Origin: Psammoneis japonica
Taxonomy: Eukaryota
Length of the DNA: 64,000 nucleotides
Reading direction: 5' to 3'
Assembly (NCBI GenBank): GCA_008632985.1
Contig: QPGO01000101.1
Span: forward strand, 124,001 to 188,000
Each line of letters begins with the position of its first letter. The stretch's first letter is position 1. The notes below the pieces were generated by a model that was not told the DNA's origin, searched no databases, and worked only from the letters and a program-made list of their open reading frames with translations. The translations under genes were made by a program, and so were the position numbers. Positions 12,900-64,000 of the stretch are shown here, piece after piece.

Positions 12900-13346
12900 A
12901 AATGCACACACTGTGAGTGAATGACAGATTGACACGCGCATCCGATTTTAGAAACAAATCTGACCAACAATTCCTTCTGTCCTGTGTGGCCCAAACAAAT
13001 GGGGCCTTTTCTTGCGCTTCCACTGCTCCTGGACATTCTTCACAAACCAAAACATTGTCCCCAATTGCTTTGACAGGGACAACACACAGCTCAGGTGAGC
13101 ACTGAGTCTTCTCAGGCATTGAAAGCCAGTTGTTTCGTTTGTGATCAAGCTGCCAGCGACTGACCAAGTCTGCATGCTGATGCCGTTGCCTCACAGTTCT
13201 CTGGTCAGCTTGACAAGCAGTTGGATGGACAACTGCAAAAATCGATCCTGTGTCTTCCTGTTCGAAGAAACACAGCAAACGGGAGGGAAACTGTTGACTG
13301 CCCTTTCGTGTGCAAAAGGTCACACAGGCAAAGTCATGCCGTGGTC

Positions 13347-27936: not shown

Positions 27937-29150
27937 GTAGTCTTTGCACAGAACTCCGACTGAGTATTCAATCCATGTTTTGAAGACGGTGGAATCCATC
28001 CATGGTACCCATAAGTCATGCACGAAGGCGGCCATCACTACTACGACCTACTATTCAAGGCAACGTCTGCGCTTGTCAGCGATAAATCCTGCAGCCGGAT
28101 GGGAGTGAATCTGTGCATGATTCGACTATTTGATCCCGGGCTTAATTGGACCTTATCAAGCTGCGCATTCCCAAGAATGCAGAGAGCTTGTTATCCCTCT
28201 CACTCTTCTTATTTAGGATGAGAGTGTCAGGCGATATCCAAGAGCATCAATAGCTATCTCAAATTCCGCTCGGTCCATGGTTCAGAATACCTCCCCGTCA
28301 ACTAGGACAAAATCTAGAGTGCAACCGTAGAGAACATAGCGATTCGTGACTCACACGTACTGTAGAGTGCAACCGCATTGATCACAGCGATTAATTACTC
28401 ACAACCGGTCGAGAGCTCTGGCGTTTGAGCCACCCTGCGCAATATTTAAGACGCTTTTAACATCTTAAAATGGCATGTCATCTGACGGAATCTTTTTTTT
28501 GTTGTTGCTTTACAACTTCAGCGTAGATTTGAGACCAGAGACCAAAAGGAGTGAGTGGTCTGTGTCCCCCCCCCCCCCCCCCCACTGGCGATTGTGGAGG
28601 GTTCACTCGCGTTTCTGATGATGCGACGTCTTTGGCCCATTGCAGTGACAGCACGTGAAGCTGCAAGAACCAGCCAGAACGAACCTTGGCAACCTCATTC
28701 TTTCTCTTCATCAATGTCAATTGATGGTTTGAGACTGAGCTTTTGGAGGTGCTGTCATTTTTCTTCCTCTTGTCCCTCTGAGTCAATCTTGTGAAGCTTC
28801 TGCTGTGTTGGTGCTGCTGCCTTGTCAGTGGCTTTGTCCATCCTGTCTGCACCACTGGCTTGACTGCTGGTTTGGCTGCAGCCTTCTGGTGGGTTTTGCT
28901 CCCCTCTCTTTTTTGGTGCAGGTTCCTGGTCATTTCAGGCCAGCCCCATCCCTTCCTGAGCAAGTCCGCTTCTTGCTCTGCACAGCCTGACAGCATTCAT
29001 CAGAGCCTTCTGTCAGACCTTTTGGCCATCTCAGGCAGCCGTGAATCTGCCTCTGAGATTCCCTTTGCCTTGCAGCAGCCTTTGCTCTGTCCGCGCATGC
29101 TGTTCTCAGCTGCTGTGCACTGAAACTGCTTCAGGCGCCAGGGTCACCAT
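24670..29150 (+). repeat. Segmental duplication copy A (paralog ~44567-49030)
   Basis: Near-identical G8 coding sequence, intron and 3' flank, continuing into degenerate DNA. Confidence 0.9.
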
Positions 29151-34013: not shown

Positions 34014-34539
34014 CGTCACACCTGTTGTTCGCTTTGTGGTGTTTTCGCGTTGTGTGTGGTTTGGTTTCGAATTTTGTGAGAGTGAGAGGAGTCTTGTGGT
34101 GATCGTGTTTTTGAATTTTGAAAAAAGTGCATTGAGCCCAATAAAATTATCCATCTCTATCATGATTATTGTTAATTTGCTTAAATGAATTCGCATACAA
34201 GATATATGAAAATTAATAATATCACATTCTAAGTACTTTGTGAGTGGAATCAAAAGCATATAGCCATGTATACATGCAGGGCACAATTAGGAATTTTGCG
34301 AGTACAAAATTTTATCGACTAATCATACCTATAAACATATTTTATCTTCAATCGGAAGCGCTCCACAAAAAATCTTGAGCATGCGCGCACGCACGGAGAC
34401 CCATACAGTAAACGGAAGACGGCTAGACTCACTCCCGGCTTGGGAGGTCTGTAATTGGTGCGGGAAGAAGAGGAAGAGAAAGACCTCCCACGGATCGTTA
34501 CATTTTTCAGCACTGAGCTAATCTGGCCAGTTAGCAAAA

Positions 34540-37041: not shown

Positions 37042-37719
37042 GTCATCAGCGCATTGATGCCAACATGAGTTGCTCAAAGAAAAGTTGAGCTCTCATCTTG
37101 CGGCACCATTTGACAACAACAAACCTGGCACACACACAAGGCCTTTCTGCATGTTTTCACATCTCAATGTTTTCATGTCTCTGCTTTTTTGTGGTTGAAA
37201 ATTGTGCTGCAAGTTTGGGCCATGCATTTTGTGCAAAACATGGGCATTTTTTGTGCGTGTGTGCACCTGAGTCTGGCACAAGTTAAGTCAACCAAGTTCT
37301 GCACATTCCTTCAAAAAGGGAGCACAGGGTGAAACCCTCAGGCAAATGCTTTTGCGCCCACTTGCTGCATGCCATTGAGCCGCCATTGACAAAATTGCAC
37401 AACACCCCTGTTGTGTGATTGCCCTGATGCGGGTTTGTTTGCAGCCATCACTGCAGCGCAACAGCAAGTGACTTGTGAAGCTTGGCACACTCTGAAGGCA
37501 GCACCAATGGGCAAGAAGAGTGAGACAATGACAAACGCATGTGCAGCTGCAAGCAATGAGTTCATGACACAGCCCAGCGCCACCACAGAGAGGATGGCTT
37601 GCCAGAGAATCCAGAAAGAGGATGAGAAGATGAAGAAGACAGCACCAGCAATGATGAGTCAACATGTTTTGAGCATGGAAACAGGTGTGGAATGAATCAG
37701 TCAAATGATGAAAGCATGT

Positions 37720-39500
37720 TCAAGATGCAAAGCTGCCGTCAAAGTTGGAGAGCACAAGAGAACAAACAAGCAATGCAAAGGTTGGTGACATCATTGAAGA
37801 CTGGGGCAAGGAGAAAGTGATGAGCTCATGTGTCAACTGAAGAGTGGCAAAGACTTGCCACCATGACTTCTTGGATGTTGTTCTTGTCACCCTCTTGATC
37901 TCAAAGCCAGCACAAAACTCTTGGAGCAAGAGATGGTTGGTCGTGGTGTCACTGACTTTGTGACAACATGCTGAGTGTGTTGCAAAAACTTGCAGAGCAA
38001 GTGGCGCAAGTGTGAGAACTGTCAGCAGATGAGTTGTTGCTTGATGTGGAGGATCTGTCATGACAAACAAGCTCTGGCATGCTTGTGTTGCTTGATCCAT
38101 CAGTCTGCATCTCAGGGTCCTCTGGGGGTCTTTGTTGCAATTCAAAGTCCTCTGGCATCTGGCATCATCACGCAGAAGTTCTCTTCATCACAAGTGTCAT
38201 GGTTGCTGCTGTCTGATTCATGCAAACAGCCTGTTGCATCATCTGGCATCCCATGGGCATCCACTTCTTTACAAATTTCAGGTTCAATGTTGTCCTGCAT
38301 GCCAAGTCTCTCCAGCTGCAACATCCTTGGTGTTCATTGTTGTTGTTGTTTTGCACTGGGCCTCTTGCCTCCATGTCCACATGCAGTTTGGCAGTTGTCA
38401 GTGGTGCACATCTTTGGAGTTGCAGGTTGAAGTGAAAACCTTTTCTCTTGGACAGCTCTTTTCTTCTGCTGGAAGGATTCTGTTGTGGGGCAATGCATCT
38501 CCAGCTCTGCCACACCACAATTGTCACAGCATCCTGCTGACAGCTGGAATCTCTCATGCCAATCATCCAGCACGGCATGCTCTGCAACTCAAGCAAGCTC
38601 TTGGTCAGCAAGGGGGGGGGGGGGGGGGCATGTCTTCAGCTGCTGAGCCTCTCACACACAGTGTGAGGTCATTGATCTCTGCTGCTCTTGAGGCATGTTC
38701 AATGAACAGAGTGTCTCTGGGCTGGTGCATGGAGTGCAAGTGCTGCTTCTGCACCACTGCTGAATCATGTGGAAGCAGTCCTGCAGTGACTGTGTCCACT
38801 GTGGCATTAAACTGTTGGGCGGCAAGATCATTGTGGTCTTCCATCAAAGCTGTGACAGCTCTTTGGTGTCAATTTTTGACAGTGCCTTTTGTCAGGCACA
38901 GCATTTGACAATGAAGGACTGGGCCGTCAGCCCAGTGATTCAGCTCTCTGGGCTCTTGAAACATTTCAAAATGACCAGGTGCTTCTCCTCAATGTCAGCA
39001 TTGCACTGATGTGCATGGAATGCTGCAGTGTCTTTTGGCTCATCCAGACCAGATGCAACCTTGTGCTTGGTGTGGCTCTCAATGTCATCCACTTCTTTGG
39101 TGTGTGACTCATGTGACTTCACCATTGCTTGGTTGGTCATGCTGGCCTTGGTGTGTGTCTTGAGGTGATGCTCTAAAAGTGCTGCAGCATTCTGCAGTGC
39201 TGTTGCACTGGGGGGCTGTGCACGCAGGCTTTCCTTGCCTTGGGTGGGAAGCACTCAGTCTTGTTGCTGAGAGGTCATGGTGCAAAAACATTGACAAGCC
39301 GCTTTTTGATCAAAGCGTCACATGGCACAGGCCCACTGTGTGCAATTGTGGTGATTTAAGAGTCTCATTCATGAAAAGTGAGACCACAAATGTGAGAAAC
39401 TCTGGAGTGAATTTCTTGATTGGCAGACAGTGGAGTGATCTTTTTTCAGAAAATTCTGTTCTTGTTGTGCAGGGACATTCCTGGGTTCTTCTTTCAAGTG
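37720..39500 (-). mobile_element. Probable Ty3/Gypsy gag remnant
   Basis: FNATVDTVTAGLLPHDSAVVQKQHLHSMHQPRD..HASRAAEINDL resembles the diatom Gypsy gag pattern (FP..A...QK.Y....KP....R..EIN). Heavily degraded; no RT or integrase recognised. Confidence 0.4.
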
Positions 39501-39528
39501 TGGCATCCGATGGTGTCACATGGGAAAA

Positions 39529-39530
<2 letters not shown>

Positions 39531-39592
<62 letters not shown>
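39531..39592. repeat. (GA)n microsatellite
   Basis: About 31 perfect AG units. Confidence 0.95.
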
Positions 39593-39594
<2 letters not shown>

Positions 39595-40259
39595 GCCAAT
39601 GGAGACCTGCACCAAAATCAACAAAATTCCAACAAAAGAAAAAACAACCATCAGAGCAAGAGCACATGGCAGAGAAATGCATTTGCATGTTGATGCCAGC
39701 TGGCATTCTTTGAAATTTGGCAATCTCATCAGCAGAGGATCTGCACAGTCAGGAAGAGGCAACAGTGAAAGTGGCAACCATGTGTTTTGTTGCACACCAG
39801 CATTTGCAGGCTTTGCAGGTCTGCACTTGAATGGCTGACACTTGAACTTGTCTCTTTTTCCACAGCAGCATTGCTGTGTTGTCCTGTGCATGCAGCAGGC
39901 TTTGTCAACAACTTGCATGTTGCCATGGGTCAACAGAACACACATTTCTAAAGATTCTTTCTTGCTGCAAAAAAGATGCAATGGGTGTTGATCTGCTCCA
40001 TCACAGGGGCCATGTCAATGACAGTCAACTTTTGTTGGTGTCAATTGGCTCTGCACCTTCCTGAGTCCAAACGTGCACAGATCAGGGGTTGGTGCCACCC
40101 ACCATGGTGAAGCTGTCTTTTTGTGCAGATTTGCCACAATTGCACTGTGATGCTCAACAAGTCAGGATCCAATGCCAACTTGTGAGATGTCAGCTTGATG
40201 CGACTCCTCCTGTTCACAGCCAGCTGCATGGAAATGACTTGGTTTTGTTGTCAAGGTGG

Positions 40260-40800
40260 TTGGAGCCTGTGTGCTGCTGGCAACTGAGGCAGCCAGAGCC
40301 TTTTTGTCTGGTGGTGGTGGTGGTTGCCCCTCTGCTTGCTGCTGGCACTTGTGGTTTTTGCAGCTTTTTTGCTTGCCAGCAGTGGTGGCAGTGTGAGCCC
40401 ATGCACTGCTGGCAGTGGCGGCAGCAGGACCCTGTGCACAACAGCTGTTCAAGCTTTTTGTCTCTGGTGCTGGTGGAAGCAGATGCCTGTTCACTGCTGC
40501 TGTGGGAGCCTGCGCATGCTGCTGGCAATGGTGGAGGTTGGAGCATGTGTGCTGCCAGCTGTCAAAGTGGTTGGATCCTTTTTAACTGGCGGCGGCACTC
40601 ACCCCTGCATGCTGCTGGCACTGGCACTTTTGCCTTTTTTGCTGCCAGCATTGGTGGCAGTGGGGGGCTTGTTGCCACCAGTGGCTGGTGGTGGTGGGAG
40701 CCTGTGCATGGCTGCTGGCACTGGTCAAAGTGTGTGGAACTTTTTTGTCTGGTGGCAGCACCTGCCCCTGCACGCTGCTGGCACTGCTGACACTGGCAAC
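40260..40800. repeat. Degenerate minisatellite (core gagcctgtgcatgctgctggca)
   Basis: Related cores at ~40262, 40396, 40504, 40602, 40696 and 40765. Confidence 0.6.
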
Positions 40801-42988
40801 AATCAGAGCCTCTTTGTGCTGCAATGCCAGGCTTGGTGTTGATGAGAGAGAGCTGACAATGACACGCCACAACGCAACACCCAAAAAATTGTGCCAATGG
40901 GGCCATTGGCTGCTGGCAGCTTTGCATTGGAAGAATCACCAACAACAAGTCAGAACATGGATGTCTGTCATGTGCTTTGGCTGATGGTGACAGGACCTGA
41001 ATCTTCTGCTTCCATTGTGGCCAAGGGACTGGGAATGACTCTTGTTTCTGCTGCATCCCACACATGTCAAAATGTCTTGGCAATCAACCAGCTGGTCCCC
41101 AAGCCAAGACAAAAGCAGCAACACTTGAACAAGTCTTCTTGGTTGGCACAGAGCCATCCTTGAGGCCACATCTCTGGTGTGATGCTCAGGATTGTCACAG
41201 CTGCAGACTTGAAAGCTGTGCCCCATTTGTTCTTGTTTTTGAACTCAGCCACAGTTCTGAGATGGTTCTGGATTTGTGGGTGGCTTGCTCCTGGTCCAAG
41301 TGCAATGTTTGACAGGAACACTTTGTTGAGAGGGTGATGGTGGTCACTGCTGAGAAGCACGCAGTGGCAGCTGTTGTCCTTTTCACATCCCAACTCTGGC
41401 AAATGAACAAAACCTTGAGCAGCGTGTTGGTCAGCAAACATTGCTTGGGTGCCTTTGCTCCAACACAGCTCAATGTCAACAGTGGAGAGAAGCATCCATT
41501 GGCAGCACTTGTGGGCTTCTTCCGCGCAAATGCTGGAAACGATGGAGCACCAAATCCGTTGCACTTCTGGATTTTTTGTGCCAACCCATCTTGCACAACC
41601 CAGTGCAATGCCTGCACCCACCCACAAAACGTGCCTGTTTGGCATCACTTTAGCAGGCCTTCATGCTTTGCCTTCCACAACTGCACTGCAATGCTGAAAC
41701 CACCAAACAACCTCTGACAACTGCTTGGCTTTGGTGTTTGGCATTTGCTCCAATGTCACAAGATGCACTTGGACAGTCCAAACAAGACCTCAACAAATGC
41801 AATTGTTTTGCCAACACACCAATGGACAACAATGACAGAGACTGCCCCGCCCCAGAACATGCCTTGCAAACACTCAATCCTCGGTGGAAAGCTTGGCAGC
41901 CTTTTGCTTGAATGTGTCCTTGCTGTTCTGTCAGCCTTGTTCAGCTGCTTGCGGCAAACCTCCTGTGATTGCATCTCTTCCTCCAAGCCAGCAGCAACCC
42001 AGTTCATGCATTGCATGAACTTGTTTTGCTTCTTGAGCTCATCTTGTGCCATGATTTCTGCTCCATGCCAACCAAGCCAGAGTCGGGCAGAAATGCTCGC
42101 GCCATTTCTTGCTTTCTGGCCATGCTGCAACAAGCCTCTGGTGCATCTTTGGCCTGCTCCAGCTCCAGGTGATGTGCAATCCATCACACAAAAGGGCGCA
42201 GTTTGGCACATCAAGCTTTTTCAAATTTGATTTTTTCAAAAATCGAAAGGCACAAGCCCCAAGTGCACGCACGAAAACACACGAGTTTTGTGTGCACTCA
42301 CCCTTCAATTTGGGAAAAAAATTGATTTTGAGCAAGTTTGTTGTGCCAAACACACAGATGGCCAGTGATGGGAATCAAATCTCTGTGCATTGCCTGGAGC
42401 TGAAACAGGCCCTTTAGTGTGTCACGTTTTGTCATTGTGGTGCAAACAAAAGTGTGGATGCACTCTGCACCATTGTCACATTTTGTGGCACATTCACGCA
42501 AGCCTTTGTTAGTTGACAAGGGGAGAGTCTGTGGCTGGCACCAGAGGCAGTGGTGGCAGCATCTCGCGGGCAATGGAAACAATGATGTGGAGCATTTGAC
42601 GAAAAAAGACGTGGTGAGCATTTGGCGGGCGGGGTGCAACTGACGTCAAAAAGCATGCTCACCTAACTTGCACATGATGAAGCGGACATTGCTGGCACTA
42701 TGACTGACTGTACAGCACAGGCATCGCGTATGTAGAGGGCTGTTGTATCCAAAGAAACCTATTATGTAATGCCGAAACTTTACATAAGCCCTGGCTTCTT
42801 GGCTGCCGTGCCGGTAATAGGTCTACAATACCGTATTTATGTCTCCACAAAATCTTCTGCAAAAACGCGAGTTCTCGTCTCTTATCATACACTACACGAT
42901 TCACATCCCAGGTACAAATGCCACAGGCTCAAGCCTGTTTGAGCAGGCCATTGATGTTCTTGTGCATGAGCGCAAACAGCTGGTGACA

Positions 42989-45900
42989 ATGGCGTCAAAA
43001 CGTGCTGTCAGAGGCATAAGAACGCCTGTCATAGTCACACTTGCTTTTTGTTTAACTCTGGCGTCGAGAAACGCGGAAGCAATCCAAAAGGACCGTTCAT
43101 TGCTGCGCGGTGGTGAACCTGCTTTACTACGGCCAAATGGAGTGTGTGAGCACGACACCGGCATTGTTTGTCACACAGAAAACAATGGAAACGACTGTAG
43201 GATTGGCAATTGCAACAACGGAGAGAAACAAGTCTGCTACAACGATTCCATGTGTCCCAAAGAAGTCAAATGTGGAAACTATGAGGCAGGTAAATGCCAG
43301 TCCAGCATGGCGGATGTATTGAGGGAAGCGATGGATACGTCGACCGTGGCCTCGAACGTAATTATTACAGAGCTCATGCCAAACCCCAAAAAACCGGTCA
43401 GAGATGCAGATGGGGAGTACATCAAACGTGAGTGGAACGGCTTGTGGACTCACTCGTATCTCATATCAAGCATGCATTGATAATTACGCTCGTCTTACTT
43501 TCGTTCTGCTTTATAATGGCATGTTTCAGTATTTAATCCCACTGGCGCATCTATTGATTTATCTTCCTACAAGGTCTGCAATACAAAGAAAGATGGTACT
43601 CCTCGATGCACAAAGCTTGAGTCAAATCTCGCGAGCGGGTCATTCTACGTGCTCTGCCGAAACAAAGGGACGGGTCCACACGGCGACAAATGTGATATCG
43701 ATACCAACATTGCTCTGCGTAATCAGGGTGATGAGATTTGGATTGAGGATATCAGCAGTGGGGTAAAGGTAGACAAAGCTACCATTCCAAACTCGAATGG
43801 CAGAAACGCAGGAAATGTCTATATCCGAGGTTCAACATACGACGCTTTTCATGCAATATGGAGATTTGTGGCAATGGATACGGCGACTGTGGCCACGAAT
43901 GTCATATTTGCGGAACTCATGCCAAACCCGAAGAAGCCAGTCAAAGATGTAGACGGGGAATTCATTAAACGTAAGTGGAGCGGCTTGCTGCATGGGTGTT
44001 CAATCTTATTAACCACGCACGTCTTCGACGATGCTCATCAGTGATTCTGTTTTATTGCATAATGACATGCTCTAGTATTCAATCCCACTGCATCATCCAT
44101 TGATTTATCTGCCTACAAGGTCTGCAAGAAAAAGTCAGGTGGCAAGGTTCGGTGCACGAAACTTTCGTCAAATCTCACGAGCGGGTCATTCCACATATTG
44201 TGCCGAAACAAAGCAACATTTGCATACCGGTACGGCGACAATTGCGATGTCGCTACCAACATTGGCTTGCGAAATCAGGGAGACGAGATATGGATTAAGG
44301 AGATCAGCAGTGGAGTAAAGGTAGACAAAGTGACCATTCCAAACTCGAATGGTAGCAACACTGGGAAAGTCTATGTGAGAGATTCGACGAATGATAAGGC
44401 CTTCCATGCAAAGTGGAGGTTTGCGTCAATAGTGTCTCACGCAGGCAATGCGTATCCAATCAGACCTCCTTCTTCATATTCGGAAAACATTCCTTCTTCA
44501 ACAACAAGAACGTCTGTCCCGGTGAATAGAGCTCCGACTGCAGGCCCTCCATCGTCGCAATTTACTGGGCCGTTCGTAACTCCCGCAACATCGTCCGAAA
44601 TTGTCAGCATTCCCAAACCACCTCATCCGCCAATGGAGCAGTTTAGCTCTGGAGGGAATAGGAAGAAATGTCCTCACCTCCAATCAGACTTGCTAGATTG
44701 GCACAGTCCAACAACGTGGATGCAGGTAAGTGTTTGATGGCCTTAAATGCTCGTCAATGTGCAGCCAATGTCTAATCCCTCACACTTGTTCTGTTTAGAA
44801 AAAAGTACCTAGCAGCGGAGATGTGACGTTGCCCTTGAATAGTAAGGTTGTTATATCAGAAAGCATCGTTGGACAACTTGGAGTCGTTACCATTCCACGA
44901 TCTTCAGAGCTCATCATAGCTGAGAATTCAGCTAATGGGATTACCTTGAATGTCAATGGAATGGAGGTGCAGGGCGCTCTCACCGCCGGATCGCAAACTT
45001 GCCGATACGAGACGGACCTAACCATTACTTTGCATGGCTCTCGTCCTAGTGACATTGATAGATTCGGAAAGTCTCCAACGGCTACCACGACATATAAGGG
45101 GATATCTATCAATGGCGGTATCCTCAGTCTACACGGCAAACGATACTTTCCAACTTGGACCAGGTTGGCGCAGACAGCTCGGTTGGCCAGACCTACCTAC
45201 TCCTTCAAGATGCGGTCAACTGGCAGTCCGGGCATGAAATTGTCGTTACGACGACCGCGATTCACGATTCAAGTCACTGGCACCAGAACGAGGTGTTGAA
45301 AATTGAGTCCATAGACATCAATCCTGTCCCAAATGTAGGAGCCGCCGTATATCTGACAAAACCTCTCAGTCATAAACACATTGCCAACAACGGCTATCAG
45401 GCTGAGGTTGGTCTGCTCACACGCAATATCCGAGTAGAAGGCGCTGCTGCCGATTCCGAGCCAATCGACCCGGACCCAGGAACTTGTACGGGATTATCGC
45501 ATTTCGGAACCAATATGGCTCCTTGTCCAGGGACCGACAAGACTGGATTTGGAGGTCATATCATCGTCCACTCGTCTGGAAAGGGATACGTTGAAGGTAT
45601 TGAGCTGTTTCGCATGGGGCAAACCAATGTCCTCGGTCGGTATCCTATGCATTTTCATTTGCTTGGCGACTGTCCTGATTGTTACTTTCAGGATTCTTCG
45701 ATTCACAGGAGCTTTTATCGATGCATATCCATCCACGGAACTCACAATACGACTGTTTCTGAAAACGTCGCATACGACGTGATTGGCTATTGCTATTACC
45801 TAGAAGATGGCGTGGAAGAAGATAACAGGATCACCCATAACCTTGCAAGTCATATTCATCCTGTCAGCAATTACATTGCCAACAGTGAAAGTGGACAAAC

Positions 45901-47830
45901 GATACCTGTGTTCTCTCAAAGAGCTGACCTAATCAATCCTGCAGACGTGACTGCAAGCGGATATTATTTGACAAATCTCCACAACGACATAATCGGAAAC
46001 GCCGCATCTGGCGGTTGGGCCGGTTTTGCCATGCCAATTCTCCTAGCCCCGATCGGTCCACACAAGGACGTAAACATACGTCCGGCAAATCGCCTGACTA
46101 AAACCTTCAACGGCAATACAGCTCACAGCACCGGCTGGTGGTGGAGCCACGCTGGGGCCTTCTACTCGGGTGGATCGCTTTACTATTCTGATAGTGAACG
46201 GACACTCTTGGAATACAACGCGGGACGCGACCTGACGAACGGCCAGCGTCATCCATGCCTTGTTGACAAATGCGCAACTGTGAGCAACTGTAATTCTTAC
46301 TGTCAAAGTGGTGAAAGGGCGTGGTTCAAGATCAGTAATTCCAAGGTCTTCCTCACTGCAAGCCCCGGTTTAAATAGCTGGAGTGGCCGGATGGAAGTAA
46401 CCGACTTTGAAGCACATGATGTGGCACTAGGACTTGAGGCCCTCGAACCGGGCATTGGCATCAAGAATTTGCTTGTTGAGTGCAGATCCGGCGAGACATG
46501 GGTAATGCCTGGCAACGGCCCCCGCAGCGTACCAGCCAACGGTTTTTCATGGTATGACACCGGACAAGAGCATATCGTTACAAAAGCTACATTCCGCAAT
46601 TGTGGATTCCGGAATGACTTTCAACACAATGATGACTCCGTTACAAGAGGGTGTGACTCCAATCCTCTCAATGGATGTCACGCTGACTCCACTGTCTGGC
46701 GCATACCTAGCCATAGTGATCAGTTTACGCCAGAAATCATGCAGGCTACTGCCAATATTGCCTATGAAGATTGTGGTCGTAGGTTCAAGCTACACGATTG
46801 GAAGGATAACAATAGCCCTTCAAGTGTGTCTGGTAGAACACAAAATTGGATGGACACTGACGGAACTGCATCGGGTCTTGGAGAACCGGTGATGATTGGT
46901 TCAGGCCTTGCGGATGCGGGACACTGGTGGAAAGTGGAGCAAGACACAGTTCATGACCCTGATGGTCCTCTGGAATTCATACGAGTCAATAATGGGCCAG
47001 AGCGCGGTCTTGGACACGTTCGCTTCAGATGGAGAGATGATATCACCAATAGTGTCGGAGTTACGAGGTGCAAACATGGCAGGGGCTGCCCCACAATCGG
47101 CCACATTCGCCACATTGGTTCCATGTTTGATGCTAGCAAAGACCCGTCAGGTGGGCTTCCCATTACAGCGAACGCCGACGTTGCCGGCCCTGTTGGCGGG
47201 TTCGGATGGTTGCTATCGCTCAATGACGGACCTCCAAAACGGCTTCTGTTGAACAAGATTGAAGTGGATTCAAGGACACCACTCATGTTGGCAATTCAAT
47301 ATCCGGCGAATACATCATTTTCAATCGTCGCCCACGCTGCATTTTGCTCGCCTACGAACACCCACTCCTGTCAAGAAACATTTAAACGAGTGGACTCTAT
47401 CTCGCATGTTCGTTATAGCCAAGGTAATACGTATTATTTTGATGCAGCAACAAACCTCCTTTGGATACGAGTGATCCAATTCCCACAGACATTCACAGGA
47501 GATAACGTCAACAGTGAATTTGCGGAGTGGCATCTATGGAATCTTGACACGCCAGATACTCGAAGGTGGAGTCCGAATGTGTACGCTCTTGATAGATACT
47601 CATTCGATGGCATCACGCTCCCAAAGTTAAATTCCCAGAATTACCTGGAGATCATTGCGGACTGTAATGAATCCATCCCTGGACACTGCGTCCGGCCTCC
47701 TGCCTACGTCGAACCTAAAGTGTGCTCCCCTGGATATTTTCAGGTGGCCTATGACAAATGCTGCAAGAGCACCACCTCAACCGATTGTGAGGCCTTGAAG
47801 CCGCCTCCAGCTTTATCACCAACTTTCTAA
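42989..47830 (+). CDS. G8/beta-helix protein, secreted copy with a Cys-rich module and two lamin-tail-like (LTD) domains
   Basis: Signal peptide; introns 43428-43529, 43971-44075 and 44726-44798 all join in frame; two VIITELMPNP..GEYIKLFNPT..IDLSxY..LRNQGDEIWI..G.KVD repeats; G8 region as in the paralog. One base missing at ~45180. Confidence 0.85.
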
Positions 47831-49030
47831 CTAGCCTTTTTTGCACAGATTTCAGACTGAGTATCCAATCCATGTTTTGAAGACGATGGAATCCATCCAT
47901 GCTACCCACACGTCATCCACGAAGGCAACCATCATTTCTACGGCCTACCATTGGAGGCAAGGTCTGCACTTGTCAGCGATAAATCCCCTAGCCGGATGGG
48001 AGTGAATCTGTGTATGATTCGGGTACTTGATCCTTTTCTTAATTGGATCTTATCAAGCTGGGCATTCTCAAGAATGCAGAGAGCTTGTTGTTCTCCCTCA
48101 CTCTTCTTATTTTGGATGAGAGTGTCAGGCGATATCCAAGAGATTCAACAACTATCTCAAATTCCGGATGGTCCATGGTTCAGAATACCACTTACCGTAT
48201 CGGTGACTGGGACGCGTTCGAATCTATTGCTCTTTGCTGAGGGACCGCCCGCTGGTGTCCCCGTCAACTCTAGAGTAGGACATACTCTAGATTACAACCG
48301 TAGAGAACATGGCGATTCTTTACTCACACTACGTACTGTAGAGTGCAACCGTAGTGAACACAGCGATTCATTACTCACAACCTGTCGAGAGCTCTAGAGC
48401 GTTGGAGCCACCCTGCGCATAACTCTCCAAGCAATAAGGACACTTGTAACATCTTGAAATAGCATAGCATCTTACGGATTTGGAGGGTTCACTCGTGTTT
48501 TGTCGATGCGACGTCTTTGGCCCATCGCAGTAACAGCAAGTGAAGCTACGAGAACCAGAACGAGCCTTGGCAGCCTCATTCTTTCTCTTCATCAACGTTA
48601 ATTGATGATTTAAGACAGTGTTTTTGGCGGTCCTTTCATTTTTTCCCTTGTTCCTCCAAGCTTTTGCCATGTCAATCTCATGAAGCTCCTGCCATGCTGC
48701 TGCTGCCTCATCAGTGGCTTCTTCGTCCACCCTGTCTGCACCATTGGTGTGACCACTGGTTTGACTGAGGCCTTCTGGTGGGTTTTGCCCCCCTCCCATT
48801 TTTGCTGCAGGTTTCTGGTTGGCTCAGGCCAGCCCCATCTGTTCCTGAGCAAGCGCGCTTGCTGTGCAGCATGGCAGCATTCATCAGGGCCTTTTGTCAC
48901 ACCCTCTCCAGCCACCTCAGCTAGCCCTGCATCTGCCTCTGAGCTTCTTGCCTCCCAACAGCAATTGCTCTGACCATTTCTGCCAGCCATGTGTTGCTGC
49001 TGCTTCAGCCCGCCCCCAGGGTCACCACCT
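44567..49030 (+). repeat. Segmental duplication copy B (paralog ~24670-29150)
   Basis: See copy A. Confidence 0.9.
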
Positions 49031-52000
49031 GGCACATCAAGCATTTTCACTGTGCTCTTTGCACAGAATGACACACCCCACACAATCACTCTTCACTTGT
49101 TTGGCAACCACTCACTCACCAAAATTTCCAGCGGGATTGTGGGAAGACACATGCATGAGTGTGTTGCTGTGATCCTGCCACAAACAGCAGGCAGGTGTGA
49201 CCATTTTTTTCTGAGCAGACAGATGCAGCGCTGTGGACAACGTTGCAAAATGTGCACAACAGCCATCATGTTTTTTCTGGTCATCCCACTTGGTTTTTGA
49301 AAATGCACGTGTGCCCTGTTGTTGTTGAACACCAACTCAGCAGCAGTGCCAGACATCTGTGCAGGATGTGTGCAATGGCCGCAAATACCTTGCTTTCATT
49401 GTTGTGTGTTTTGTGCCAAAACCCACAAAATGTGACCTGCAGTGAGGATGCTTGTCAGCACAGATCAGAGGCCAATGAGAGACAGTGGTCTGTGCCCTCC
49501 CCCCCCTGTGCAAGTGAGGGGCATGGAAGAGGTGCCAGGGGATCCAAGCACAATCTCTGTGCGCTGCAAGAAGGGTGGTTGGCATCATGTGACAGTCAGT
49601 GAGAGCACCCACAAGCATGGATGAAAGATGACAGCCATGAGTTGAAGGGGGCTGCTGGTGCCAGCTCAACAAAGCAAGGCTGTGCAGAGTGGGGGAACAC
49701 ACGGGGCAGAAAACAACCACAGACACAGCAACAGGGGGCAAAACTGTGGCAGAGGAAACTCTGTTGTGGGGCATTGAACAAGACCTGCATGGAGCACTGC
49801 CGCCCTGAAACCACACACCAGCATCAAAAGTCATCAAGCTCATGCCCAGCCACTGGACACTCCAAATGCTTGCACACAAACCTTCCCTCATCTGAACTTG
49901 ACAGAGGAGGACATGGTGTTAGAGCAGCACATCTCTTTTGCAGCACGCCTGCACTGCAACTGGCAGTCATCAGTGTGGAAATGATGCGAGAGTGTTTGGT
50001 GCAGAATGGTGCAAGCCCCACTCTGTGACATGACCATGACCACATCTTCTGCATCATCTTTCAAGCTGACAGCAGACCAGCTCTTGTGTGGCAGAAGAAA
50101 TGAGTGAACGTGGTGCCACCAAAAACAAGGACAAGGATGAGAGCGGTGATGCAGATGAGGAAGCACAAAAGTTGGAGATTGACGAGTGTGATCCACTTGG
50201 TTGGGGTCTGTGGAGGATTTGCGATTTTGTCAGTTGTTGAAAAAAAAAACCAGCGCACATTCTTGTTGGACCATTCAATGTTGCACCAATGTTTTCCACC
50301 CATGAACAAGACACAGTTGACATCAAACATCCCACAAATCATGGGAAAATGATGCATTGCCAATGATGACACAGTGCTCCATCGCACAAATTGTCTCAAT
50401 GTGTGCTCAGGTGATTCTCTTTTGCTTGACAATCGCCAACAGTGCTCAATCATTCAGGACATTTGGGACAACACTGTTTGTCTTGGCATTTCTCAAGCAC
50501 TCATTGTCAAAGAACTTGCAATTGGTGTGCATCATTTTGTGTCTTGTGTTCAATTGCTGCAAGATTGTTGCAAGCAACAGAGAGTGCAAATGTGTTGGGG
50601 CAGCCAGCAGTGGAGAGGAAACTTCATTTTGGTGTGAATGCCAAGAGTGCCAGAGCAGAGCACCCACACATGAACCATGCCACACATACTCAGCACTTGA
50701 TCATTTTTGTCTTGGTTTGGTTGTTGCATGTTCGCCGCACATTGTCATGTGTGCTTGAATGAGGCAGCACACAAAATTTTCTCTTTTGACTCAGCATGGC
50801 TCAACAATCAACAGAAGTTGAAGGGGCATTTTTTTGGCTGAACAACATCAACAGAATCATTGTCAAATTTGGAGATGTCAACCTTGCATCATGAAGCCAA
50901 TGAAAGCATCACTTGTGATGCATGCTGGCAAAAATGAGGCTTTTTGGCAGTGAGCTTCTGAGTCAATCGAACAAAGCCATTGGCTCAATGCATGCTCCAC
51001 CACAATCAACATGGCAAGGAACCTTGTCAGGAGTCATTGATGCGTGCACACACCATTGTTTTTTCCATCAAAATTTTGTTGCTGGCACTCTTGTGATCTT
51101 CCATCCTTGACTTCAACTTGCCTTGAATTTTGTGCTTTGAAAATGTCCTGCAAGAGAACCTCCAGGACAGCACAGTGCACAAAGCCTGGCAAGGTGTTTC
51201 TTTGGTCTTCCAAGTGCACCATGTGGGTGCATGGTGCGTGTCAGATGGCAGATGTCAAATCTAAAAAAGACAGCTGCTGACAGCAGGGCAAGGGGCTGCA
51301 CGCCACCATGAGAAAAAACTGTGGCTTTGCACTTCAAAAGCACAGCATGCACACAGAGCCCCAAGGTGGAGCACTCAGAAGGTCTTCAGCAATCTTGAGC
51401 GCACTTCAACAGCAAGGATGCTTGGGGCATCTTGCTTTCTTGCATCTGATGACAAATCTGACAAAATCAACACCCCTTGGTTTTTGTGCAAAACTTCTTC
51501 CTGACAACAGTGCAAGAGCCTCCCTGCTTGCATGTGTGCAAGTTTTTGAGCACAAAAAGGCCACCCACATTGGCACCCCTCAACAAAAACACGACACAAA
51601 ATGATGGCACAATCTTTTCTTGCCAATCTTTCTAAAAAATGACGATGCACATTCTGGTGCCAGACACACTGACCACACACACAAAATGCACAGCAGCAAG
51701 CATGGCACACCAACAAGAGTGCAGTGCTGGCAAAAAAAACCTTTGTCACAGACTTGAGGTGTTTTCACCATGAAGTGGTGAGGTGCAGCCAGGTTTGTGT
51801 GTGCAACAAAAAAAAAACATGGTGCAAAAAACACTGGGCTCTGGCGGCAATTTTTGGCCGAGTTTGAGCCACAAAAAAAGCAGAGACCAACCACCCAAAA
51901 GAGAAAAAAAGCACTCAAGAGTAAAAAACAAGTCAAAACAAGAAAAGAGTGGTGTCAGCACAAACTCTGTGTGTGGCTCTTGGGGGTGACATCATGATTC
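48620..52000. other. TpA- and CpG-depleted degenerate (probably TE-derived) DNA
   Basis: Near absence of TA and CG; no recognisable family. Confidence 0.6.
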
Positions 52001-56690: not shown

Positions 56691-57489
56691 TTGAGTTGAA
56701 GATAAAGAGCAGAGGCTTCCTTTTCAATGCATTTCGCCTTGAGATCTGCCATTGTCTTTTCGATCGATTTGAATTCGGCCGCATCCTTTTCCAATGGCTT
56801 GAGATCCTCCTTGAGTTGTTCGAGACGAGACGTGGCAATTTCCTTTTCGCCCTTGATGCTGGCCACTTGTTCTGTTTTCTGGTTCTTGTCCTTGGTGAGA
56901 CGATCAATCACGCCCTGGTCTTGGGCTACAATGCCCTTTCCAAACAAGGTTTTGCCACGGAGTTTGGGTTTTTTGGCTTGCGAGTCCAATCCCGCATCCA
57001 ATTCGGCAATCGCCTTGGTGAGGGTCTGAATGTCTTGATCTTCCTTGTGAATTTGACTAGTGAGCTTTTTAATTTCCGCCTCACACGCACTCGCCTTGGC
57101 GGTGCCGACTTTAGTGCTTCCAGTTCAGGTTGCATTTGCTTGTACTGACGAGCACGTGCCAGCGACGATTCTTGGGGATGTTCGGGATCGGGAACCAACA
57201 ACACCATCTCGTCCGATTTGTGCTCGACGCAAAACTGAGGATACGAGCCTTCATCCTTGAATCCATATTCGGACGGCTTGTCACAACGAGGATATTCGCA
57301 TTCGTACGAAATTTCCGGTTTTTCGGGTTCCTTTGTTTTTGCTTCTTCTTGCTTCTTAGCAGCTGCTGCTTGTTCTTCTTGTTGCTTCTTTTGAGCCGCT
57401 TGAGCTTGTTGAGCGTGATGGGCACGAGCCACACGTGCAGCAGGAGGTCCACGGCCACGACCACGTCCAGGTCCACGTCCAGGAGGCAT
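56615..57489 (-). CDS. Coiled-coil protein with RG-rich N-terminus and EsV-1-7-like Cys motif
   Basis: MPPGRGPGRGRGRG; CEYPRCDKPSEYG..PQFCVEHK..MV; C-terminal coiled coil. Frameshifts between ~57020 and ~57110. Confidence 0.65.
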
Positions 57490-57993
57490 AGCTACGATGA
57501 GGAGGATACCTTGCAGAGAGAGGAGAAGCACACGAATTGTGTGAAGTAGGAAGTATGAAGTATGTTTGATGTGCGGATTGTTCCATGTTGGAGGTTGGAT
57601 GGAGAGAATGCAAAGAATCGAAAAGATCTCATGTCAAAATGAGATCCTTCGTATGACAACGGTCGTAGAAATGATGTAGAAAAGACAAATCTTTTCGCGC
57701 GATTAACAACATACAAATTTATTTATGTATGAAGGGTAACAAACAACGTCATCTATTAAAATAATTAAAAATTATATATACATATAAACGTCGATCGCTT
57801 CACAAAATGAAACGGCAAAACGAGTCGATTGAAGCAAAACCCAAAACGCCAAAGAGGCAAGGTCATCATCTGTGCTTGTCAAGCAACTTATAAAGAATGA
57901 AGCGGTAAGAGTAATGATAAAAGAGATGAGCAGGAGCAGCGTGTTTCGTTTCGTGTCATTGCATCTGCTTTCTCACGCGACAGTGCTTTTTGT

Positions 57994-60900
57994 TTGCACG
58001 TTTTCGACGAAATCATTCTTCACAAAAGAAACGCATGGCTTGTTGTCATTGCAACGGCGCTGCTCTTTGTCACAAATGTCAATCATGATCCCACCACAGT
58101 CGAGTGCTGCATGGCAAGTCCCTTTCCCTTTCAAATGAGACAACCCAACAGAACCAAGACACCCAAACTGTGGCTTCGCGGCGGACCACAATTTCATTGC
58201 CTCGAGGATGAGCACGGGTGTGCCTGCATGAGAAACAGTCAAGGCGAGGTTGTTCATGCCATGCAAAGTGACAATGTGTCATCTGATGGTTGCGTGTTGG
58301 GTCCGAGTGCCATGAAATTGGGAGACAGTGACGATCTAACCACGTTGGGAATTCGCAAAGGCCTCTTTCAGGAAGAAATGCAAAAAAAGTGCGGACGCAT
58401 GTGCAAACATTACGACAACGAAGGTCATCCAACAACGAGGCATTGATTGACAAACAAGCATGTTGCAAAGCCTCTCTCACTTCAAAAGAATTTGGTCATT
58501 TTGATTCGGTTTTCCAGCCACAAAGGGCGGAGGCTGCCGACGGCCGACGATGCAAATGCACTGTTCAACAAGCGAGGGGGGGACCCAATGTTGGCACCCA
58601 CGGGAAGCATCCGAGATGTCTGTAATCAGACTTCTTGTGGAAATTTAACGTTGGAAAGCATTGTCCATGGATGGGTGTGATGCTTGACAAGGTCAGTCGA
58701 CTTGAGCGCGTAGTGAATCCAATTTTCGTCGCAACGAGTTACTGTGTGCTCACCATATCATTTTCTCTTTTCCACATTTTTTAGACGGAACAATACTACG
58801 CCGACAAAAGCAGTGGCCTTTCCATTGTGTTTGTGCAAGCACTACACGATGCACTGGACATTGTCGACAGGGATGTCAACTTTTCGTTTCGTAGTGTCGA
58901 CTCGGACGGCGACGGAACGGTCGACGCCGTCACTCTACTTCATTCTGGATATGGAGCCGAGTGGGGAGGCGAGGATGCTGATGGTCATGATTCAACGGAA
59001 CGGATATGGTCTCATAAATGGTCCATGCCTTCTTCTCTCCATTGGTATAGTAGCCGTGAGCGTATACGAGTTAACAAGTACAATGTCAACCCGTCCCTGT
59101 GGGGACTACGCGGTGGAGAAATTGGTCACATTGGAGTCATTTCACACGAGCTAGGCCATGCAATCCTATCTCTTCCTGACTTGTACGATGGAGTCGGAAA
59201 CGGAGGTACAAGTGGACATGGCATTGGGTCGTACGGTCTCATGAGCAACAGCTGGGGTTTCGATGGGACGCAGTACTATCCTCCAATCATGTCGCCATGG
59301 AGCAAGATTCAAATGGGATGGCTCAAGCCCAAGTTGATCACAACCGAGGGTACATTTACAATTGAAGCGTCAGCCTTTACACCCGACGTTTACCGGATCA
59401 ATCTCAAAAATGACCCTCAATCCTCCGAGTACCTTCTCATTGAGAATCGACAAGCTGCAAGTTTTGACGCCAAGCTGCCACAAGGAGGACTTGCAATCTG
59501 GCACATTGACGAAGAAGCTGGGCATTACAGAAATGGCTTTCCGTCACAAAGCGGATGGCCTCAAAACGGAAATCATTATCGTGTAGCATTGCTGCAGGCG
59601 GATGGGAGGTACGACTTGGAACGAGGCCGCAATCGCGGAGATGAAAATGACTTGTATCATGCCGGCGGGATCACATACATTGGCCCATCGGACGCAATCG
59701 GACCATTTCCAAACACCGACTCGTATCAAGATGGAATTGTTACAAAGTCTGGCATTATGATCCATAGCATCAGTCGTGCCAGCAACGTCATGAGATTCGC
59801 CGTCTCGTTTGTGGACAATAAGAGCGCACCACTCATGCTTTATACCGAGGAACCAACCACCCGACCCACGCCTATTCCAACTTCGAAACCAACCCGTATC
59901 CCGACTACGCCGTTCCCAACTATCGGGCATGCTGTAAGTAAAGAGCTTGCCACGTCCTTTCAAGGAGACAAGGGTGCCTCGGGCTGCATGTTTGACGTCC
60001 GACCGCTCAACAGCTTGTATCTTGATGGAATGGACATTCATACCGACTCGACTGGGTACCTTTTGATTGAGATTTGGACCAAGCCGGGAACGTATAAGGG
60101 ATTCGAGACAAATAACAGTGAATGGAGTTTGGTCAACAAAGAGGTGATGCGGGGCAAGGGATTGGGAAATCCGAGTCCAGTACCTTCCTTTCCGTCCATG
60201 AAAGTGGCGGCCAACCAATCCTTCTACGTGGCTATTCGGACAGGCGGACAAGTCTATTCCACCGCTCATGGGCAGCCAAGTAGTAGTGGCAACGATAAGG
60301 TGTATGCCTCGAATCAAGACATTCAAGTTCTGGAGGGTATCGGAAAGAAGGGTTACTTTGGCCGAAGCAACCGCAACCGACAGTGGAATGGCGTTCTGCA
60401 CTATACGGTGGGTGCTGGCAATGACCGCGACTCTACGCCGGCTCCAACCACTGCAAACCCAACGCCACGTCCCACACCAGCTACCAAACCATCAACTTGG
60501 AGACCATCGTCACGTCCCACACCGTTACCGCCAACAACATCACGTCCAACAACAATACAAGGAGAAACAACCTTGCCTCCATCTACTGCATCATCAATGA
60601 AAAAGATTTTAACAACCTTTCAAGGTAGAGATGAACAAGCCGGAATCATGTTTGATATGGTTGCCTTTCACCACGTCACCATTACGGGTATCAACGTTCT
60701 GATGACCACGTCGACGTCGTCGTCCGCCAGCATCGACTTTTTGGAAGTTTGGACTAAAATGGGCAGTTACAAGGGTTTTGAAACCGAATGTGTAGCATGG
60801 AGACAAGTGGGAGTCACCACCATTCGTGTTGTTGCTGCTACGACTAGTAGTAGCACCCAAAGCAGTAGGTCTCGTCGTCGACGACGTATCGTTTCGAGCA

Positions 60901-61718
60901 TTACCCTGCAGCAGCCGGTTCCCATTTTGCAATACCGTGTACAGGCCTTTTATGTCACCATCAAGACTGCTACAGATGATAAGGGAATCATAATGCTCAA
61001 CTGTAGTCCGGGTACGGGACGAAACAAGGTTGCAGCTCACGACGAGAATCTTGCAATTTTGGAAGGAATCGGAATATCCTATCCTTGCAGCGGCAACAAT
61101 GCCGTTACTACTGAGAGCCGAATAATCTTGAATGGCATGATTCAGTATTTGCCCTTGATTGATGACGAAGTAACGCCCTTGCTGCCCACGCCTCCACCGA
61201 CTCGTACGCCAACCAGCAGCACCCATAAAGAACTCATGACCACCTTTTTTGGAGGCAAGACGGGTGAGGGGTGTATGTTTCACGTGATTGCCAAACAATA
61301 CAGAATTTCCATTACTGGATTTCGACTTCATCTGGATACCCTAAAGGAGGTCCCGTATGAGATTTGGATGAAACGTGGAACCTACGTTGGGTTTGAAATC
61401 AACCGCAAAGCTTGGACGCGAGTCGCTTGGGGAACCGTCCAAGGACGAGGTCGTGGCCGGCAATCATCGCCGCTTCTTTTGCATAGTGATGGATTATTAG
61501 TGGTAGAACCAGGCACCATGATTGCATTTTACATCACTTTAACAGAAAGCAAGATGCGTTATACCAATGCCAATAAAATGAAACAGCATGCTGGTTCCAA
61601 CTCGGATTTGATCATTACCAAGGGTGTTGGGAAATCCTATCCCTTTGCTATTACGTACCGTGACCGTGTCTGGAACGGAGTATTGATGTACAACACAAAT
61701 GATAGTATTGCTCCGTAA
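57994..61718 (+). pseudogene. M6-family (InhA-like) metalloprotease with three C-terminal repeat domains; exon 1 hypermutated
   Basis: Exon 2 (58785-61718) is intact: HELGH..LPDLYD, GLMS, YLLIENRQ. Exon 1 (to 58691) has the M6 pro-region (QP..TP, NLVILIRFS.H, GSIRD) but a TGA at 58444 and Cys/His at expected Tyr sites. Intron 58692-58784. Confidence 0.8.
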
Positions 61719-62709: not shown

Positions 62710-64000
62710 CCCTAAACAGAGAGGCCATCCGCACGCACACCCACACCAACTGACTCTGCCAGCGAGAAGAAACAGCACGTTCGCCCCAACTCCATCTGTG
62801 CCCTGGTCCAAATTTCATCCATTGCACTTGCACCTCTCTACACCCGACTAGGAACTGAGTGCTCCAGGATCTGATTTCCCCATGTGAGCAAAGAGTGTCA
62901 AAAGACATCTGTCATGTAGAACATGGGCCTGGAAATGCCACTGCAAGCTTCAACGGTCAACGACAGTCACACTGGAAAATGACAGGCAAAATGAAAATGT
63001 GAGTGGAACAACGTGCACAATGATGATCCATTGGGGTTACATGTCACAGCATGCTCACTGGGGCACCTTTTAAATGTAGAGCTGAGTCGCCTTGCTGATT
63101 TTTATGCCCCCAAGCAACATCAGCGGTTCGTGGCATCCGCGCATTCAAGAGGAGGCGATGAACCCGCCAACACAAGCCTCAACCTTCCCATTTTACCCAT
63201 TGCAAAGCCTAGAGTCGTAGTTGCACCACAAAGATCTCCCAAAATAACGTGGACAACATTGTGTCTTGGATGATGATGACAACGCGGTTGAAGGGTGGGT
63301 GGAAAGGGTCAAAAAGGACCAGACACCTGTGCGCATGATCGAGACGCACCAAAAAAGGCTCGTGAGTCATGCAAGTTTCGTCAAAACGAGTCCAAAACTC
63401 AATCAATCACAACATGCTCACAGGGTCACCTTCTTTGGACCATGGAAAGGCTGTCTGACAAATGCCAATGTCGTGAGCATCCCCGAGACTCCATCGCATC
63501 GTTTTGTTCCCACGGCATGCACTTTCAAGAAATTGTTGTCGCCGAAAAACGACATGCTGTGATTGCGAGCCGACCAAGACCTTCAAAAACACATCAAGCT
63601 TGTCACAAGTCCAAATGAATGGCAAAAATAGATGCACCAAAAGATGTGGAGTGGGATGAAGCACAAGGCTCCCAAACGGATGTGCTTTTGTGATGACGAC
63701 GACGTGAAAAAGATGCCAACATTGCAGATGCAACAATCGACCGTACGAGACGATGTGTCCTCCTGTGAAGCTGCAACAAAGCACAAACAACATCTTTGGT
63801 GAGTGGACAAACGGCACAAAATGAGAAAACACAGAAAGAACTTGCCACGGCAACGTTGTCGACCATTCAGATGTCACCCGCACCGCGCAGCAATCGAGTC
63901 ACAAGTCGAGGCACGCAACCGTTTGTGCCGTGTGTCGCCATCAAAGCCCCCAGGAAACCAAACCAATGCATCAACCTCTTTGTGACAACAACAGAAAAAG
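62710..64000. other. TpA-depleted degenerate DNA running off the window end
   Basis: Few TA, CpG partly retained; no family recognised. Confidence 0.5.

Follow-up and report, generated by a model that had tools for sequence, protein, structure and literature searches.

Can a mutation process that removes TpA dinucleotides from the repeat DNA of a genome also act on a lone gene? The question is raised by a 64-kb stretch of the genome of the diatom Psammoneis japonica (contig QPGO01000101.1 of assembly GCA_008632985.1, positions 124,001 to 188,000 of the forward strand; hereafter the window, numbered from its first letter), in which the 5' end of a gene for a predicted M6 metalloprotease is almost devoid of TpA (TA) and the remainder of the gene is not. 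From comparisons of this locus with homologous genes, with control segments of the window and with contigs assembled from reads, we think it probable that about 790 bp at the 5' end of the gene were hypermutated in place by TpA to TpG or CpA changes, and that this recently disabled the gene copy. Most likely, the TpA mutation process that degrades the repeat DNA of this genome can also strike a lone gene far from visible repeats. What is new here is the target: a small, isolated tract on a host gene of single copy, at a distance of 4-6 kb from the nearest mutated blocks.

A TpA-depleted tract at the start of an M6 metalloprotease gene

The tract and the gene that it overlaps are made up of the following features.

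57919 to 58710, no strand: TpA-depleted (hypermutated) tract of ~790 bp, delimited by TA positions, counts per 100 nt, observed/expected (o/e) ratios per segment and null windows
57919 to 58034, plus strand: 5' non-coding part of the tract, likely 5' untranslated region or core promoter, with 0 TA in 116 nt
58035 to 58691, plus strand: exon 1 of the M6 metalloprotease gene, which runs from the signal peptide through the N-terminal region into the beginning of the catalytic domain (tblastn, alignments, sequence)
58692 to 58784, plus strand: intron of 93 nt, GT..AG, with normal TA (4 TA, o/e 0.56), placed from the sequence and from the homolog alignment, which resumes at 58785
58785 to 61718, plus strand: exon 2, an intact frame of 977 codons that encodes the HELGH zinc site, the remainder of the M6 domain and a C-terminal set of three repeats (open reading frame (ORF), profile matches)

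A first-pass annotation of this DNA had singled out a patch of ~750 bp with almost no TA but plenty of CG, and counting bears this out. In particular, the 761 nt from 57930 to 58690 (the patch) contain 4 TA (o/e 0.08), 38 CG (o/e 0.84), 77 CA (o/e 1.61) and 71 TG (o/e 1.51). At the TA density of exon 2, in which TA has an o/e of 0.68 and CG one of ~0.96-0.98, 33.2 TA would be expected in a patch of this length (Poisson P(<=4) = 2e-10), and among 506 control windows of 761 nt, taken from segments of the 64-kb window with normal TA, the minimum was 11 TA and the mean 32. The longest gap without any TA measures 419 nt inside the patch, versus 224 nt across the normal-TA control segments. The CpG deficit within the patch is mild (o/e 0.69-0.75 by segment, versus 0.96 in exon 2).

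The last TA before the tract is at 57918, only four (at 58337, 58411, 58623 and 58646) lie inside it, and the next, at 58711, is already in the intron. The left edge is sharp and abuts a TA-rich, promoter-like stretch, the 419 nt directly upstream (57500-57918) having 27 TA (o/e 0.69), and the right edge falls between 58667 and 58710, at most ~25 nt from the junction of exon 1 and the intron. The loss of TA is sharply local, with 4 TA in the 761 nt of the patch set against a normal flank, a normal intron (4 TA in 93 nt) and a normal exon 2. Of the gene, only the 5' non-coding stretch and exon 1 are affected, the 5' non-coding part of the tract having 0 TA versus 9 expected from composition (P(0|6) = 0.0025 at the usual o/e). 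The TA-free blocks nearest to the patch are ~6 kb upstream and ~4.3 kb downstream, and a search for transposable element (TE) domains, long terminal repeats (LTRs), terminal inverted repeats (TIRs) and target-site duplications found none around the patch (within about 4-6 kb), in keeping with the earlier remark that no TE is visible there. The 64-kb window holds no second copy of the patch.

Exon 2 scores 118.4 bits against TIGR03296 (cutoff 110.8) and 34 bits against PF05547 (cutoff 22), and its translation carries HELGH, the HExxH motif of peptidase family M6. The matches cover only profile positions 61-286 (TIGR03296) and 153-293 (PF05547), so that the N-terminal part of the domain must lie upstream; indeed, profile positions 1-60 and 1-152, respectively, map to exon 1. 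This part of the domain is not completely readable: exon 1 bears a stop codon, a frame shift and losses of Tyr, and, when read through its stop, gave no match to any family. In tblastn, 30 homologs align with frame 1 of exon 1 over 58099-58677, with E values down to 3e-36, and the alignment resumes at 58785. The closest relatives are M6 proteases of Thalassiosirales diatoms and of marine metagenomes, and homologous genes occur in diatoms and bacteria. We identify the gene as a predicted M6 (immune-inhibitor-A-like) metalloprotease gene, which is a host gene and not repeat or foreign DNA. No other sequence resembling exon 1 or exon 2 was found within the 64-kb window, and there is no paralog there. 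(The C-terminal two thirds of the protein, encoded by 59830-61715, consist of three repeats of ~200 aa joined by Pro/Thr-rich linkers; each repeat has an E-I/V-W-x-K-x-G-x-Y-x-G-F-E stretch and is without a Pfam match.) With its uninterrupted frame and normal TA, exon 2 is as pristine over 2.9 kb as the first-pass annotation had described it.

Direction and sequence context of the changes in exon 1

The direction of the changes was read from an alignment of the window with 58 homologs, in which a column was called Tyr-majority if at least half of the homologs carry Tyr. The conserved residues that were replaced in exon 1 are as follows.

58198, 58219, 58255, 58621, 58636 and 58666 (span 58198 to 58668), plus strand: six codons changed from Tyr to Cys or His, each explained by TA to TG or TA to CA (homolog columns)
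58222, 58553 and 58559, plus strand: Thr to Ala at the first, Val to Ala at the other two, each explained by TA to TG or TA to CA (homolog columns)

All six Tyr-majority columns of exon 1 read Cys or His (TGC, TGT, CAT, TGT, TGT and CAT), as noticed in the first-pass annotation, versus 0 of the 14 in exon 2, of which 12 read Tyr and 2 read Phe (Fisher P = 2.6e-5). That earlier reading would have fallen if the homologs themselves carried Cys or His at these columns, but only 0-2% of the 58 do so. When each coding CA or TG was set back singly to TA and scored on the homolog columns, 11 reversions in exon 1 were better and 27 worse, compared with 7 better and 76 worse in the first 380 codons of exon 2. 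Nine of the exon 1 reversions (six to Tyr, one to Thr and two to Val) raise the frequency of the residue by at least 0.3, and none in exon 2 does.

The changes are also specific in their context. We scanned all single-base ancestors, counting as gains those non-synonymous testable sites at which the restored residue is at least 0.3 more frequent among the 58 homologs. Reversions in the TpA context yielded gains at 9 of 54 sites in exon 1 versus 0 of 89 in exon 2 (P = 1e-4), and, within exon 1, reversal of A to G changes after A, C or G yielded 0 gains at 114 sites versus the 9 of 54 after T (P = 2e-5). Transversion-type reversions gave gains with the same low frequency in the two exons (13/887 in exon 1 and 25/1659 in exon 2, or 1.5% in both), from which it follows that the patch is no old pseudogene and has undergone no general decay. 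What the alignments indicate is that the patch underwent a context-specific burst of A to G changes after T, on either strand.

Both strands were affected, with 5 TG-type versus 4 CA-type changes among the inferred replacements and 77 CA versus 71 TG overall; events of the two types tend to form short same-strand runs, in numbers too small for a test. WA mutagenesis of the polymerase eta kind is excluded by the AA context (0/30), and R-loop or transcription-strand-specific deamination is excluded as the sole cause by the absence of a strand bias. CpG to CpA or TpG replacements of conserved residues were found at 4 of 74 testable sites in exon 1 versus 2 of 94 in exon 2, a difference that is not significant. 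CpG-type residue changes inside the patch are located at 58147, 58150, 58171 and 58609, to which the stop codon described below, probably derived from CGA, may be added. These CpG-type changes, together with the CG deficit, hint at cytosine methylation of the same tract.

Exon 1 bears two further lesions that can be placed exactly.

58444 to 58446, plus strand: in-frame TGA in a poorly conserved linker (ORF, alignment, intron scan)
58678 to 58679, plus strand: two extra bases, TG within GTGTG, which put the last four codons of exon 1 into another frame (sequence, alignment, read contigs)

The TGA, which the first-pass annotation had listed, is in frame, and an intron that would remove it was rejected, since all 47 in-frame GT/GC..AG intervals delete conserved flanking blocks. 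About half of 20 aligned homologs read Arg-Arg-Leu at this site, from which the TGA likely arose from CGA by a CpG to TpG change; the TpA process was rejected as its source, since the codon before the change would already have been a stop. The frame near 58677, reported earlier to be 2 nt off, proved to be just that. Frame 1 of exon 1 ends at the GTG of 58675-77, and the codons ATG CTT GAC AAG (58680-91, directly before the GT donor at 58692) share the frame of exon 2 and fit the five residues that homologs have between Trp and Thr-Glu. It follows from this agreement in frame and length that 58678-79 are the two extra bases. (Note that splicing from a weaker GT donor at 58675 would be in frame but would lose the 5 residues of conserved length.) In addition, the signal-peptide-like stretch is preceded by a single ATG, at 58035, which is offset by one base from frame 1 (58036-58677); this is probably a third lesion, although that is a reading and not proof.

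Misassembly had been named beforehand as something that would undo these observations. Contigs from two DNA runs of one sample, which may be the assembly's own data, reproduce the patch and show 0 differences from the window over 57776-58735, so that neither the stop codon nor the frame shift is a consensus error.

The data to this point bear on the view that there was no mutator, and that chance, codon or amino-acid usage, or an error of assembly gave rise to the patch. Such a view gains some credit from the gene upstream.

56926 to 57633, minus strand: divergent neighbour gene with an EsV-1-7 cysteine-rich motif (profile match)

This Gln/Ala/Lys-rich gene is TA-poor from coding bias alone, with 11 TA in the 787 nt of 56703-57489 (o/e 0.25). 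Hypermutation of the gene was considered and excluded, because its low TA comes without an excess of CA or TG and looks like coding bias; the intergenic DNA that separates it from the patch is TA-rich and unmutated. (A contig of ~936 depth overlaps 57300-57551, which suggests that part of the low-complexity coding repeat of this gene is multi-copy.) The patch, in contrast, has a TA count with P ~2e-10 and has 4 TA where none of the 506 control windows has fewer than 11, its conserved Tyr sites have become Cys or His, its excess of changes is context-specific, and the contigs of both runs are identical to the window. An origin without a mutator is effectively refuted by the contigs, the Tyr columns, the controls and the context test, and we regard it as exceedingly improbable.

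A second version of the locus and the origin of the tract

Read depth places the window version at single-copy level (58-66 in the patch versus 48-73 in the flanks). The first-pass annotation had left room for the exon to be multi-copy, for example as a TE-captured copy elsewhere; neither the window nor the depth of the patch points to additional copies, the depth being the only test that reaches beyond the window. Among the same-sample contigs with at least 85% likeness there are only the window version and one other. This second version is 5.5-10% divergent, has a depth of 48-60 (versus 48-66 for the window version) and may be a very divergent haplotype or a recent paralog. In exon 2, the two versions have 34 differences in 31 codons, of which 22 are synonymous, and TA counts of 29 and 31. 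These counts indicate that exon 2 is under purifying selection, with a ratio of non-synonymous to synonymous substitution rates well below 1, and that it is unmutated in both versions.

Closer to the patch, the two versions part. The alignment of the second version breaks from 57846 to 58021 and from 58621 to 58706 (or to 58766, with 41 other letters), and upstream of 57784 the second version is unlike the window. Between 58487 and 58621 there are 13 differences, assigned by subtraction from run totals, which, read from the window to the other version, comprise 7 C>T, 4 G>A, 1 A>G and 1 G>T. Differences of the C>T and G>A types make up 11 of these 13 versus 9 of the 34 in exon 2 (P = 6e-4), and the second version thus seems to keep T or A where the window has C or G, as if the window version had lost TA after the split. 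The C-terminal part of exon 1 was also used to look for short protein fragments of the second version, and no candidate came to light.

The breaks in this alignment raise the possibility of gene conversion or ectopic recombination, in which ~0.8 kb would have been copied into the gene from a paralogous pseudogene elsewhere, one that lies in a repeat block and is hypermutated and decayed. A single step of this kind would account for the loss of TA, the stop codon and the frame shifts, all of them in the patch, as well as for the pristine exon 2; both breaks are near the edges of the patch; and ~0.8 kb is a typical length for a conversion tract. However, the window has no copy of the patch that could have served as donor, the contigs show two versions only, with the window version at single-copy depth in the patch, and no look-alike of the patch or of the start of exon 2 was found in a partial index of other DNA windows. 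Moreover, substitutions outside the TpA context are not raised in exon 1 (the transversion class is at 1.5% in both exons), unlike what an old pseudogene donor would have brought with it. We consider conversion unlikely.

The same structural difference at the 5' edge, where 57847-58020 is missing from the second version or different in it and all likeness ends upstream of 57784, could be taken as the trace of a transposon that was once in or beside the 5' end of the gene and is now excised, deleted or present in another haplotype, with the patch as the remaining flank of a mutated domain from which the process spilled over. The DNA around the patch has no TE domain, LTR, TIR or target-site duplication to show for such an element; the sequence immediately upstream (57500-57918) keeps its 27 TA; the 174-nt segment absent from the second version has 5 TA in its first 72 nt, so that the supposed centre of the domain is unmutated; and gene edges beside the large blocks of the window are mostly clean. 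Spill-over of this kind seems to us quite improbable. A 16-nt inverted repeat (57870-57885 and 58681-58696, 88% complementary), the left arm of which is itself a 13-nt palindrome, brackets the patch almost exactly. We considered whether its arms might be the TIRs of a captured element and rejected this, the right arm being native coding sequence that matches the homologs and the complementarity being at the level of chance.

We favour hypermutation in place. The whole of 57919-58710, comprising promoter-proximal non-coding DNA and exon 1 of a single-copy gene, would have been hit by TpA to TpG or CpA changes, through the same A:T to G:C, TpA-restricted, two-strand process that would have erased TA from the repeat blocks of the window. 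About 29 of about 33 TA would have been rewritten, replacing six conserved tyrosines and at least three other conserved residues, and these losses together with the stop codon, the 2-nt insertion and probably the shifted start would have disabled the gene copy, in an event recent enough for the 2.9-kb exon 2 to remain intact. The chemistry may have been deamination of adenine in TpA on either DNA strand, with the inosine read as G, as proposed for the chlorarachniophyte Bigelowiella natans; the targeting may have followed a local chromatin or small-RNA state and not repeat sequence as such; and the indels may be by-products of the repair of a densely damaged tract. At a mutation rate of the order of that in B. 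natans, a tract can saturate while the adjoining exon stays pristine.

The blocks referred to here are the following.

~1 to 5000, 8750 to 20700, 28500 to 31000, 34500 to 42500, 48500 to 52000 and 63000 to 64000: six blocks with TA near zero and CA/TG enriched about twofold

It is because of these six blocks that TA has an o/e of 0.34 over the 64-kb window; genes between the TA-poor blocks have values of 0.5-0.9. CG was kept (o/e about 0.6-1.0) in the TA-free stretch 11000-18700 and lost (o/e <0.25) in 9500-10800, 19000-20300, 28700-31000, 37500-42000 and 48700-51800, and since TA-free blocks occur with and without CG, the loss of TA and the loss of CG are separable. A Pfam scan of ORFs of at least 120 aa, covering 92 of 132 ORFs, gave no match in the TA-poor blocks, and in the normal stretches it gave matches to GT25/sulfotransferase, G8/CEMIP-like, SDR and PAN families. 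One of these genes, the G8/CEMIP-like gene, is present twice (24671-28291 and 44567-48189) as a 3.6-kb duplicate that is 94.5% identical, with 160 and 154 TA; only 26 of its 192 differences are of the TA<->TG/CA type, and these are symmetric between the copies. Because this duplicate keeps normal TA, duplication alone is not the trigger of the mutator. Inside a TA-free block there is a tandem pair of 405 nt (13347-13751 and 13749-14153; 99.5% identical).

The limits of the patch, its signature, the direction and context specificity of its changes and their absence from exon 2 are matters of observation; several points nonetheless weigh against the event proposed to lie behind them. The TGA, the two extra nucleotides and the shifted start could not have been made directly by the TpA process, and all are in the 657-nt exon 1, with 0 such lesions in the 2,934-nt exon 2; at a uniform rate, this would be expected by chance with a probability of 0.006 for three lesions or 0.03 for two. 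Given their clustering in exon 1, either side effects accompany the TpA process or the history of the tract was a different one. The only class of target reported so far is repeat or foreign DNA, to which the patch does not belong, and no trigger was found for it. The contrast with the second version, for its part, consists of 13 differences placed by subtraction, up to 3 of which may lie elsewhere; its C>T and G>A differences could reflect CpG decay in the second version; and this version is an allele or a paralog, the contigs of which cover none of 58191-58433, where holes prove nothing.

How the patch came to be a target is a matter on which we are more tentative. It is possible, though we would not put it above that, that what attracts the mutator is not repeats as such but a chromatin or small-RNA state, which a promoter-proximal segment of nucleosome scale (~0.8 kb) can acquire in an ordinary single-copy gene, possibly on one allele, and that the mutator thereby turns reversible epigenetic silencing into permanent gene death. 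The first-pass annotation had pictured the patch as part of an epigenetically silenced allele; the mild CpG decay, which hints at such a state, and the apparent contrast between alleles are compatible with it. Its further suggestion that the TpA process drives gene-family turnover is speculation.

Significance and comparison with known systems

The one published description of TpA-directed hypermutation dates from 2026 and concerns viruses integrated in a chlorarachniophyte, and the small tract reported here constrains the rule by which such a process is targeted. At the patch, the process needs neither a repeat nor a duplicated or foreign sequence, and it can act on a segment of no more than ~0.8 kb at a gene's 5' end. 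The case also exposes the cost of such a defence, in that the gene for a conserved secreted protease was disabled in place. The edges of the tract are resolved at the level of base pairs, the adjoining unmutated exon serves as an internal control and the same cells carry a divergent second version, all of which makes the locus well suited to assays of methylation, histone marks, small RNAs and allele-specific mutation. Should targeting by chromatin state be true, epimutations would have a path to mutation, and diatoms a rapid, allele-specific way of losing genes.

Repeat-induced point mutation (RIP), known from Neurospora and other ascomycetes, introduces irreversible transitions at one dinucleotide, domain by domain; it abolishes coding capacity and can spread to host genes that are duplicated or lie next to a target. 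The process inferred here resembles RIP in that it, too, is a dinucleotide-specific, domain-wise, irreversible mutagenesis by transitions that destroys coding capacity. It differs in direction, as RIP makes TpA through C to T changes at CpA, whereas here TpA is depleted, CpA and TpG are enriched and the homologs polarise the changes as TA to TG or CA. It differs also in its trigger, for RIP is set off by duplication, whereas the patch is single-copy and the 3.6-kb duplicate, 94.5% identical, is untouched.

In somatic hypermutation of immunoglobulin genes by AID, a zone of ~1 kb near the transcription start of a single-copy gene is mutated on both strands, a geometry (mutated zone of ~1 kb near the gene start, single-copy gene, both strands) that the patch shares. 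AID deaminates C in WRC, and the A:T phase, which depends on polymerase eta, targets WA, including AA. Here, by contrast, only TA was hit (AA 0/30), the tract is saturated and sharp-edged, and the same process appears in silent repeat blocks. ADAR and ADAT enzymes convert A to G with a preference for a 5' U or T; they belong to RNA-editing systems, and ADAT2-type enzymes have been reported to edit DNA. The likeness to the present case lies in the change of A to G with a 5' T, and the difference is that the changes here are fixed in the genomic DNA of a sequence that is not a retroelement.

The closest parallel is B. natans, as described in a preprint (Mettrop et al., bioRxiv 10.64898/2026.01.13.699255). 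In mutation-accumulation lines of this alga, two integrated viral regions mutate at ~1000x the rate of the remaining genome; of the 231 mutations there, all except one were A>G or T>C, and these were all at TpA; and the larger region is present in single copy and is transcriptionally silent. As the enzyme, the authors, who discuss ADAR and ADAT as adenosine deaminases, put forward a DNA adenine deaminase of the ADAT2 kind (Mettrop et al., bioRxiv 10.64898/2026.01.13.699255). Our search of the literature found no report of TpA-restricted hypermutation in diatoms and, for any organism, only this preprint, the supplements of which may list host genes in TpA-depleted clusters. The two cases differ in host (a chlorarachniophyte there, a diatom here), in the length of the tract (25-186 kb versus 0.8 kb) and in its degree of depletion (a Rho of 0.45 for the nucleocytoplasmic large DNA virus region versus a near-saturated TA o/e of 0.08). 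They differ likewise in the nature of the target, which is giant-virus or virophage DNA in B. natans and the 5' end of a host gene here, with no foreign or repeat DNA within 4-6 kb, and in the kind of evidence, a live mutation rate having been measured there whereas the patch is a footprint in the sequence of one sample. The likenesses are nevertheless close: in both, changes are A:T to G:C only, occur at TpA only and yield TpG or CpA according to strand; both are confined to sharply local domains in a genome that is otherwise normal, with single-copy DNA as a target; and both have as their long-term footprint a depletion of TpA together with an enrichment of CpA and TpG.

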